A stretch of DNA of 15,368 nt from Candidatus Jordarchaeia archaeon (GTDB lineage Archaea; Asgardarchaeota; Jordiarchaeia; Jordiarchaeales; Freyrarchaeaceae), in assembly GCA_018383835.1 (NCBI GenBank), contig JAHAWR010000017.1, forward strand, positions 1 to 15,368, written 5' to 3'. Within the stretch, counting starts at the first letter, position 1, and every line of letters begins with the position of its first letter. Positions 1,487 to 1,608 of this stretch are shown piece after piece. Below the pieces are notes generated by a model, which was given only the letters and a program-made list of their open reading frames with translations, had not been told where the DNA came from and searched no databases. The position numbers and the translations under genes are program-made.

Positions 1487-1608
1487 AGTCAAGCCCACAT
1501 GCGATTCGGCGAGTACTACTGTGCGGGAGCCAGTGGGAAAGCCGAATGTTGGTGCTACGGCGCCGACCATAGCATGTGGGGTCTACCCGTTCCCATTCCG
1601 AACACGGA
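1487..1608 (+). rRNA. rrf: 5S rRNA, circularly permuted gene (3' half encoded before 5' half); the coordinates are the 122-nt unit predicted to be excised and circularised
   Basis: Rotated, the sequence reads GCGCCGACCATAGCATGTGGGGTCTACCCGTTCCCATTCCGAACACGGA|AGTCAAGCCCACATGCGATTCGGCGAGTACTACTGTGCGGGAGCCAGTGGGAAAGCCGAATGTTGGTGC(TACG). Canonical 5S elements are all present. Helix II is 1573-1580/1494-1501 (perfect 8 bp). Helix III/loop C carries CCGAACACGGAAGTCAAGCC. Helix V is 1504-1510/1541-1547. Loop E shows GAGTA/GAAA. Helix IV is 1516-1521/1531-1536. Helix I is 1548-1555/1560-1567. Confidence 0.85.

Follow-up and report, generated by a model that had tools for sequence, protein, structure and literature searches.

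A probable circularly permuted 5S rRNA gene in Jordarchaeia with flanks predicted to form a splicing-endonuclease motif

Introduction

In permuted tRNA genes, such as those of Cyanidioschyzon merolae and Thermofilum pendens, the 3' half of the molecule is encoded upstream of the 5' half, a single transcript carries both, and the flanks form a motif of the bulge-helix-bulge (BHB) type. RNase P and tRNase Z then open the resulting circle at its acceptor ends, and the mature tRNA is finally linear. Here, we report the analysis of a locus with the same order of halves that specifies 5S rRNA. It lies at positions 1487-1608 of a 15,368-nucleotide (nt) stretch of DNA from Candidatus Jordarchaeia archaeon, an Asgard archaeon (assembly GCA_018383835.1, contig JAHAWR010000017.1, positions 1 to 15,368 of the forward strand); this whole stretch is referred to below as the window.

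Two precedents that had been named when the locus was first noticed are borne out by the literature, namely, the permuted signal recognition particle (SRP) RNA gene of Thermoproteus (PMC4731332) and permuted 5S rRNA in organelles, for which brown algae are an example (PMC4267664). Circles are also familiar from ribosomal RNA: mature ribosomes have been reported to contain circular 23S rRNA (PMC12918454, PMC7758197), and Pyrococcus, Thermococcus and several uncultivated phyla have 23S rRNA that is permuted or circular when mature. The archaeal 5S rRNA, unlike 16S and 23S rRNA, is stated not to be processed through circularization (PMC12918454, 2026), the low-level 5S circles seen in Sulfolobus received neither explanation nor validation (PMC3326292), and the 5S rRNA gene has been described as 'essentially constant' (PMC7594248). 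A literature search, incomplete in its coverage of subscription journals, found no permuted 5S rRNA gene in archaea and none processed through a BHB motif, in agreement with the original prediction; a prior description is possible. From the comparative evidence presented below, we consider it highly probable (about 0.85) that the locus is a functional 5S rRNA gene of a Freyarchaeota/Jordarchaeia archaeon that is circularly permuted and is restored by cutting and ligation of its transcript.

Results

A 5S rRNA encoded with its halves exchanged

Read directly from the sequence, positions 1487-1608 make up a full 5S rRNA in which the 3' part precedes the 5' part (Table 1), the wrong order that the original prediction had proposed, and the Rfam alignments of the two halves agree with this reading. 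In the region 1400-1700, searched in E-value mode, the 5S_rRNA model (RF00001) gave two matches, both below its gathering score of 38 bits. In the match at 1559-1637 (21.4 bits), the real alignment comprises just 1559-1607, which corresponds to model positions 1-49 and covers the helix I 5' strand, loop A, helix II and helix III/loop C. In the match at 1437-1557 (19.1 bits), it comprises just ~1487-1557, corresponding to model positions ~50-120, with the helix II 3' strand, helix V, loop E, helix IV and the helix I 3' strand; within this segment, 1487-1547 aligns to model positions ~50-110. 5S rRNA is absent from the Rfam output at the gathering threshold and at E<=1 across the whole window. 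The native sequence yields only these partial hits, as had been anticipated.

As a mirror-image test, in which the model was rotated instead of the window sequence, we constructed a covariance model, R1, from 15 canonical bacterial and thaumarchaeal 5S rRNAs without any Asgard sequence. These were genes found by Rfam in unrelated loci, all rotated at one common point, following the 3' strand of helix III, and aligned (alignment A2); the structure of R1 is the RNAalifold consensus of A2 and is the expected rotated 5S fold. R1 matches window positions 1488-1609 over the entire length of the model (positions 1-116 of 116) with 55.8 bits and an E-value of 3.5e-12. The complete 122-nt molecule that the original prediction expected is recovered after rotation only, and in colinear order nothing in the window reaches the 38 bits of RF00001.

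Each of the five helices (I-V) is supported by complementarity within the window, as had been claimed, with every pair listed and all pairs standard. The rotated 122-nt RNA folds into a three-way junction (z = -4.8). Loop A (CAUAG), loop C (CCCAUNCCGAAC) and loop E (GAGUAC...GGGAA) agree with the Rfam consensus in both partial matches; the conserved loop sequences also align to R1 and are invariant in the alignment of permuted sequences described below (A3).

A scan of genome contigs with the pattern TGGGAA-N40-70-CCCATNCCGAACNCGG returned at least 119 loci, mostly ordinary 5S rRNA genes with a chance TGGGAA upstream. The scan supplied the canonical sequences for R1 and also two more permuted Asgard genes, on contigs L069 and L119. 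In a control run of R1 on the 119 scan loci, the only ones above 50 bits among the matches listed were L069, L119 and three loci from Clostridia. The latter were rejected as permuted genes: they are tandem 5S-5S arrangements in which R1 spans the junction, and both colinear genes of each tandem are also found by Rfam, at 83-95 bits, making these loci a positive control. In the Clostridia metagenome-assembled genomes (MAGs), the intact tandem genes are spaced by 6 nt at L031:4876-5115 and L021:4053-4292 and by ~70 nt at L030:4007-4310.

At the permuted Asgard loci (the window, nine related loci, L069 and L119), Rfam detects no colinear 5S rRNA, and homology and covariance tools report fragments or nothing, much as had been foreseen. 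The absence of a colinear half flanking the locus likewise stood up to the Rfam search; a remnant of a tandem duplication was considered and rejected, given that no further half was found next to the unit. The Rfam family of organellar permuted 5S rRNAs, mtPerm-5S, gives no match at E<=10 on 1400-1700 and none at E<=1 on the whole window. The gene in the window is broken between helix III and loop B, whereas that family has its break at the junction.

Distribution and covariation of the permuted 5S rRNA

The protein encoded beside the 5S rRNA gene at 1732-2613 (+) has no Pfam match. It is 100% identical to a protein of 'Candidatus Freyarchaeota archaeon', with relatives down to 47% identity in Jordarchaeales/Jordarchaeum MAGs, and all its named relatives (P0001-P0010) come from Jordarchaeia or Freyarchaeota. 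Through these relatives we reached 13 loci, and all 13 contain a permuted unit colinear to that of the window (nhmmer; alignment A1, consisting of 8 sequences). Together with eight metagenome contigs, the permuted arrangement is found in 21 of 21 Jordarchaeia/Freyarchaeota loci, which bears out the expectation that relatives would share it.

The genomic neighborhood of the gene differs among these loci. In the window and in its closer relatives, the permuted 5S rRNA gene lies between a thiolase gene and a hypothetical gene. In the group of P0007 (L125, L126), it is on the opposite strand, ~1 kb upstream of the hypothetical gene and beside a class-I tRNA-synthetase gene, and in the Jordarchaeum group (L127-L132), it is located between rpoB and a methyltransferase gene, ~4 kb upstream of the homolog of 1732-2613, with four genes between them. 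Given the different neighborhood in the Jordarchaeum group, the conservation of the 5S rRNA gene is not a by-product of synteny.

The two further Asgard contigs are permuted at the same site (L069:1768-1949(+) and L119:1977-2152(+)). L069 is Njordarchaeales-like, with a uS2 protein 78-79% identical to Njordarchaeales proteins, and L119 belongs to a 'Promethearchaeia archaeon' of the class Promethearchaeia (the Loki/Hel class). Rfam reports no 5S rRNA at either locus; R1 scores 74.1 bits on L069 and 55.6 bits on L119. Both have leader/trailer helices of their own, of 13 bp in L069 and of 5 + 14 bp in L119.

Alignment A3 contains 14 distinct permuted sequences and was evaluated for the mature 5S structure. 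Paired states occupy 97.0% of the cells, and 24 of the 40 pairs are changed on both sides. None of 500 shuffles reached any of five measures, and sliding the partners by 1-3 columns reduced pairing to 31-39%; the sequences in A3 are related, so the shuffle control overstates significance, an effect that leaves the slid controls and the independent pair types untouched. In helix I, all cells of the 8 pairs are paired and 6 of the 8 covary; helices II, IV and V each contain 5-7 covarying pairs. Judging by this pattern of substitutions, the permuted 5S rRNA is under selection as a structured RNA.

A putative single transcription unit

The gene has the layout of one transcription unit, the 3' part followed by the 5' part, with a single conserved TATA box upstream, oligo-T downstream and the native termini joined by a 4-nt loop. 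The TATA box, TTTATATT, is invariant in all eight sequences of A1, in which the neighboring spacer varies, and is also found upstream of the eight metagenome copies; we infer that it works as an archaeal promoter. An oligo-T run follows within ~25 nt of the trailer helix in every homolog. What would be the termini of an ordinary 5S rRNA are connected at helix I by the tetraloop UACG in the window, and across the homologs this cap always has 4 nt (UACG, CACG, CUCG or UUCG). In L069, helix I is extended by ~seven pairs with one unpaired base and is closed by a GUUA loop. Position 1603 is the bulged C of helix III.

A relaxed bulge-helix-bulge motif at the ends of the 5S rRNA

The 14-bp helix formed by leader positions 1467-1480 and trailer positions 1610-1623 is present in the minimum free energy (MFE) fold of the precursor (z = -6.25). 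Inward of this outer helix, a GAU bulge (1607-1609), a central helix of 4 bp (CGUG/CACG) and an AAA bulge (1485-1487) give the geometry of a BHB motif, two 3-nt bulges flanking a 4-bp helix, in the relaxed rather than the strict hBHBh' form. The precursor in the BHB conformation has a free energy of -80.7 kcal/mol, compared with -84.8 for the MFE fold, a difference of ~4. Bases 1604-1606 of CACG are shared with helix III, so the BHB pairing and the mature pairing are mutually exclusive.

The archaeal splicing endonuclease cleaves after the second nucleotide of each bulge, a rule derived from tRNA introns at position 37/38. Cuts placed by this rule, between 1486 and 1487 and between 1608 and 1609, would release 122 nt, and the boundaries originally assigned to the gene, 1487 and 1608, coincide exactly with these sites. 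Joining A1608 to A1487 would give CACGGA-AGUCAAGCC (a hyphen marks the joint), which has the length and pattern of the Rfam consensus uCggAAguUAAGc; the predicted product CACGGA-AGUCAAG corresponds to CggAAguUAAG in the consensus and to CGGAAGUNAAGC in canonical 5S rRNA, and the junction is predicted to read ...CCGAACACGGA-AGUCAAGCCCAC.... Standard cuts followed by ligation would restore the canonical RNA sequence.

Among the 11 sequences that have the same register as the window (alignment A4), 90.9% of the cells of the outer helix are paired and 7 of its 14 pairs show compensatory change, for example, AUGA/UCAU to ACGG/CCGU; the central helix is invariant in all 11. The length of the leader/trailer helix varies from 10 to 14 bp across the homologs. 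The idea of repair through a BHB motif, put forward in the original prediction, gains support from this covarying helix and from cut sites predicted to regenerate a canonical 5S rRNA.

A second register is found in L125, L069 and L119. Here, CUGG or CCGG takes the place of CGUG in the leader, the trailer has AAA as its bulge, and the central helix is shifted by one nucleotide (C-G, U/C-G, G-C, G.A), with bulges AAG and AAA. The corresponding cuts would give CACGGAA-GUCAAG (-GCUAAG in L069), that is, the same joined sequence and length as the window type. Two geometries that converge on one product are what ligation predicts and are hard to explain if the ends are left open.

An intron in the 5S rRNA gene of relatives

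Four metagenome copies (L133, L136, L138 and L140), but not the window, carry a 32-nt insertion in the 5' strand of helix III, between ACUACCC and GUUCUC. It forms a canonical hBHBh' motif with the outer helix GGGAA/UUCUC, the central helix CUAC/GUAG, a 5' bulge CCA, a 3' bulge AAG and an inner helix whose 8 pairs are broken by a single G.A mismatch, so that all four copies have the hallmarks of archaeal BHB introns in rRNA. Standard cuts yield CUACCC-GUUCUC, identical to the sequence of the intronless L131. This exact restoration validates the cut rule within the lineage, and, as far as sequence comparison can tell, shows that the splicing machinery already acts on the 5S transcript in some members.

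A literature search that was incomplete for subscription journals turned up no description of a 5S rRNA gene with an intron. The 5S intron fits the intron-rich tRNA set of Freyarchaeia, in which 92-95% of the tRNA genes contain introns, often several and many at non-canonical positions (PMC11291895). In the window itself, the sole Rfam match at gathering thresholds is an intron-containing tRNA-Met. This tRNA-Met (CAU), at 9987-10083 (-), has an insertion of ~20 nt after the anticodon arm, in the region of the variable loop, a non-canonical intron position that is in line with the intron-rich tRNA sets of Freyarchaeia.

Search for a colinear gene and annotation of the locus

The metagenomes were also scanned with a pattern that lies inside the 3' half and fits a colinear gene equally well. 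This order-blind scan gave eight contigs, of which eight were permuted and none colinear. Standard searches of ~140 kb of related DNA found no colinear 5S rRNA, and no colinear copy was seen among the loci and metagenome contigs examined. The permuted gene is probably the only 5S rRNA gene of these genomes.

The permuted order would explain why standard tools fail to find 5S rRNA at these loci, and no family that detects the permuted Asgard gene was found in Rfam 15. As had been suspected, false open reading frames (ORFs) are called over the locus. The sole database relative of ORF 1344-1643 is a 40-amino acid (aa) 'hypothetical protein', QXW47_02530, annotated in a Jordarchaeales MAG, which is a translation of the 5S rRNA itself; when the translated spurious ORF was used as bait in a protein database for other lineages, this single Jordarchaeales match was all that was retrieved. 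At L124:10001-11113, the neighboring gene is called 77 aa too long, its ORF being extended through the 5S rRNA. The hypothetical gene beside the 5S rRNA is called as 370 or 367 aa instead of ~293 aa in L124 and for P0005, P0006 and P0011.

Table 1. Coordinates of the permuted 5S rRNA gene, its flanks and overlapping ORFs (window positions unless a contig is given).
Feature	Coordinates	Strand	Remarks
BRE-like A-rich stretch and TATA box TTTATATT (1435-1442)	1427-1442	+	~24 nt upstream of the leader helix
Outer processing helix, leader strand GCUGGGCGCCAUGA	1467-1480	+	pairs with 1610-1623, 14 consecutive pairs
Central BHB helix, leader strand CGUG	1481-1484	+	pairs with CACG 1603-1606, four Watson-Crick pairs
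Leader 3-nt bulge AAA	1485-1487	+	predicted cut between 1486 and 1487; sequence and standard BHB rule
Predicted excised and ligated segment, complete permuted 5S rRNA, 122 nt	1487-1608	+	R1 match, covariation
5S rRNA 3' part	1487-1547	+	loop B remainder, helix II 3' strand, helix V, loop E, helix IV/loop D
Helix II	1494-1502 with 1572-1580	+	
Helix V	1504-1510 with 1541-1547	+	
Helix IV	1516-1524 with 1529-1536	+	helix IV/loop D 1516-1536
Helix I, closed hairpin	1548-1567	+	GUUGGUGC (1548-1555), loop UACG (1556-1559), GCGCCGAC (1560-1567)
5S rRNA 5' part	1568-1608	+	loop A CAUA, helix II 5' strand, helix III, loop C
Helix III	1587-1592 with 1600-1607	+	
Loop C CCAUUCC	1593-1599	+	
CACG, central BHB helix strand in the precursor	1603-1606	+	1604-1606 also belong to helix III (3' strand) in mature 5S rRNA
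Trailer 3-nt bulge GAU	1607-1609	+	predicted cut between 1608 and 1609; sequence reading
Outer processing helix, trailer strand UCAUGGCGUCCAGC	1610-1623	+	
T-rich stretch TTGCTTTTG	1634-1642	+	likely archaeal terminator, putative function
Spurious ORF over the RNA gene	1344-1643	+	99 aa
Spurious ORF over the RNA gene	1365-1628	-	
Intron-bearing permuted 5S rRNA	L133:1638-1845, L136:2589-2796, L138:1925-2132, L140:4508-4715	-	

Discussion

A possible route to a 122-nt 5S rRNA

The features described above suggest the following pathway. Transcription would start from the TATA box of the stand-alone unit, and the tRNA-splicing endonuclease would cut after the second nucleotide of each bulge, releasing the segment delimited in Table 1. 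The RNA ligase RtcB could then join A1608 to A1487, restoring the sequence of loop B and helix III (CGGA-AGUC) in a 122-nt covalently closed 5S rRNA. Once the leader is released, CACG would be able to re-pair within helix III. The circle, capped at helix I by the tetraloop, would probably persist and enter the ribosome as such; alternatively, it might be re-opened in the helix I loop.

Several points weigh against this reading. Cleavage, ligation and circularity are all predictions from sequence. On the inner side of the leader bulge, pairing is weak (G.A, U-A, C-G), so that the motif falls short of a strict hBHBh'; helix III is a competitor of the central helix, which RNAfold does not choose in its MFE fold; in the shifted register, the central helix consists of three pairs and a G.A. 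The Njordarchaeales loci retrieved around uS2, where synteny with L069 is not kept, contain no 5S rRNA, colinear or permuted, a result that concerns these loci only. A second, colinear 5S rRNA of divergent sequence is possible, the searches having covered loci rather than whole genomes, and Sun et al. 2021 list a 23S, a 16S and a 5S rRNA gene for the MAG of Ca. Jordarchaeum madagascariense (PMC9723677). The text of that paper was found to contain no method of 5S detection (PMC9723677), and the listed gene could be a partial match to the permuted locus or a real colinear gene. The supplementary tables of the paper on the complete Freyarchaeia genome have no 5S entry, either way. The published record is in conflict: no 5S rRNA gene could be predicted by standard tools in two circularized Heimdallarchaeum genomes (PMC8813620), whereas the Jordarchaeum MAG is listed with one (PMC9723677).

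The best-surviving rival, which we regard as rather unlikely, accepts the circle as an intermediate only and has it re-opened in the helix I loop, producing a linear 5S rRNA with normal termini. Permuted tRNAs are expressed via circular RNA (Soma et al. 2007, as cited in PMC4267664), and archaeal pre-rRNA circles are thought to be re-linearized (PMC12918454). On the other side, the helix I cap is exactly 4 nt long in all homologs and of stable types, and the L069 cap sits on the long extension described above, so that it looks like a hairpin belonging to the structure and not like a spacer to be discarded; the cap shows no sign of a second processing motif; and the closest precedent, the SRP RNA of Thermoproteus, stays circular (PMC4731332). 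On these grounds, given ligation, we lean somewhat toward persistence of the circle.

Much less probable is a permuted 5S rRNA that is never ligated, a linear product trimmed at the processing stem, with its ends in loop B/helix III and helix I as a closed hairpin. A 5S rRNA that is permuted in its final form does exist in brown algal mitochondria (PMC4267664), and the nick would fall where helices II and III hold the RNA together. Against this, the flanks form the archaeal cut-and-ligate motif rather than a plain stem, and RNAs released by the splicing endonuclease are normally circularized (PMC4731332; PMC12918454). Furthermore, mtPerm-5S does not match and has a different break point, and the two cut registers of different lineages lead to the same joined sequence and length, which is expected only if the joined product matters.

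That the locus is a rearranged pseudogene or relic, with the ribosomal 5S rRNA coming from a colinear gene elsewhere, would accord with the scope of the searches, which stop short of whole genomes, and with the 5S rRNA gene reported for one Jordarchaeum MAG (PMC9723677), but it is scarcely credible and largely refuted by covariation, considering the compensatory changes that keep every helix across 14 distinct sequences, the covarying processing helix, the invariant TATA box and ever-present oligo-T run, the survival of the locus on relocation in the genome, the same permutation in two further Asgard lineages, the order-blind scan (8/8 permuted, 0 colinear) and the lack of a predictable 5S rRNA in two circularized Heimdallarchaeum genomes (PMC8813620).

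Implications

If a permuted gene that requires ligation is what these archaea use, an essential rRNA can be made only by cutting and rejoining its transcript with the tRNA-splicing machinery, and some relatives additionally need to remove an intron from the 5S rRNA. The case shows the reach of BHB-dependent gene rearrangement in an intron-rich Asgard lineage. There is also a practical side: MAG quality standards count 5S rRNA, standard models miss the permuted gene, and false proteins are annotated over it.

The broadest version of the proposal, that this is the sole gene, that the 5S rRNA is circular in the ribosome and that the arrangement arose early and is found widely among Asgard archaea, is tentative, and we put its chances slightly below even. 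Should it hold, an old and widespread permutation would account for the undetectable 5S rRNA in complete Heimdallarchaeum genomes, and these relatives of eukaryotes would need the tRNA-splicing endonuclease and ligase for ribosome biogenesis. A product that stays circular would provide a natural experiment on the role of 5S topology in the assembly of ribosomes.

Comparison with known systems

As far as we can tell, the mechanism is of the type known from permuted tRNAs and the Thermoproteus SRP RNA, and the substrate, an rRNA in Asgard archaea, is new. An E. coli design with 5S rRNA placed in 23S rRNA reportedly included the closing of the native 5S termini. In this engineered strain (Huang et al. 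2020, PMC7283268), a circularly permuted 5S rRNA supports viability without free 5S rRNA; the replacement of all free 5S rRNA by a permuted one in 23S rRNA suggests that a closed helix I is tolerable. The construct differs from the Asgard gene in being artificial and in having the 5S rRNA tethered into 23S rRNA, not as a free circle.

The mitochondrial permuted 5S rRNA of brown algae (mtPerm-5S; Valach et al. 2014, PMC4267664) shares with the Asgard RNA the replacement of the open helix I by a closed hairpin. It is, however, organellar, has its ends at the alpha/gamma junction, and stays permuted and linear without ligation (PMC4267664). Archaeal pre-16S and pre-23S rRNAs resemble the present case in having a processing stem formed by the flanks, with a BHB motif from which endonuclease and ligase generate circular rRNA; their genes are colinear, so that circularization is unneeded for the order of the sequence. 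Compared with permuted tRNAs, the Asgard 5S rRNA differs in having a conserved tetraloop at the end of helix I, where no signal for opening is evident.

The closest parallel is the permuted SRP RNA gene of Thermoproteus tenax (Plagens et al. 2015, PMC4731332). In both cases, an essential structured non-coding RNA is permuted and is missed by standard gene finders, and in both the lineage is rich in non-canonical tRNA introns. The Asgard RNA differs in being 5S rRNA, a component of the ribosome, and in being known from sequence alone; its hosts are Asgard archaea instead of Thermoproteales, and the permutation extends over several deep lineages, compared with a few species in the case of the SRP RNA.

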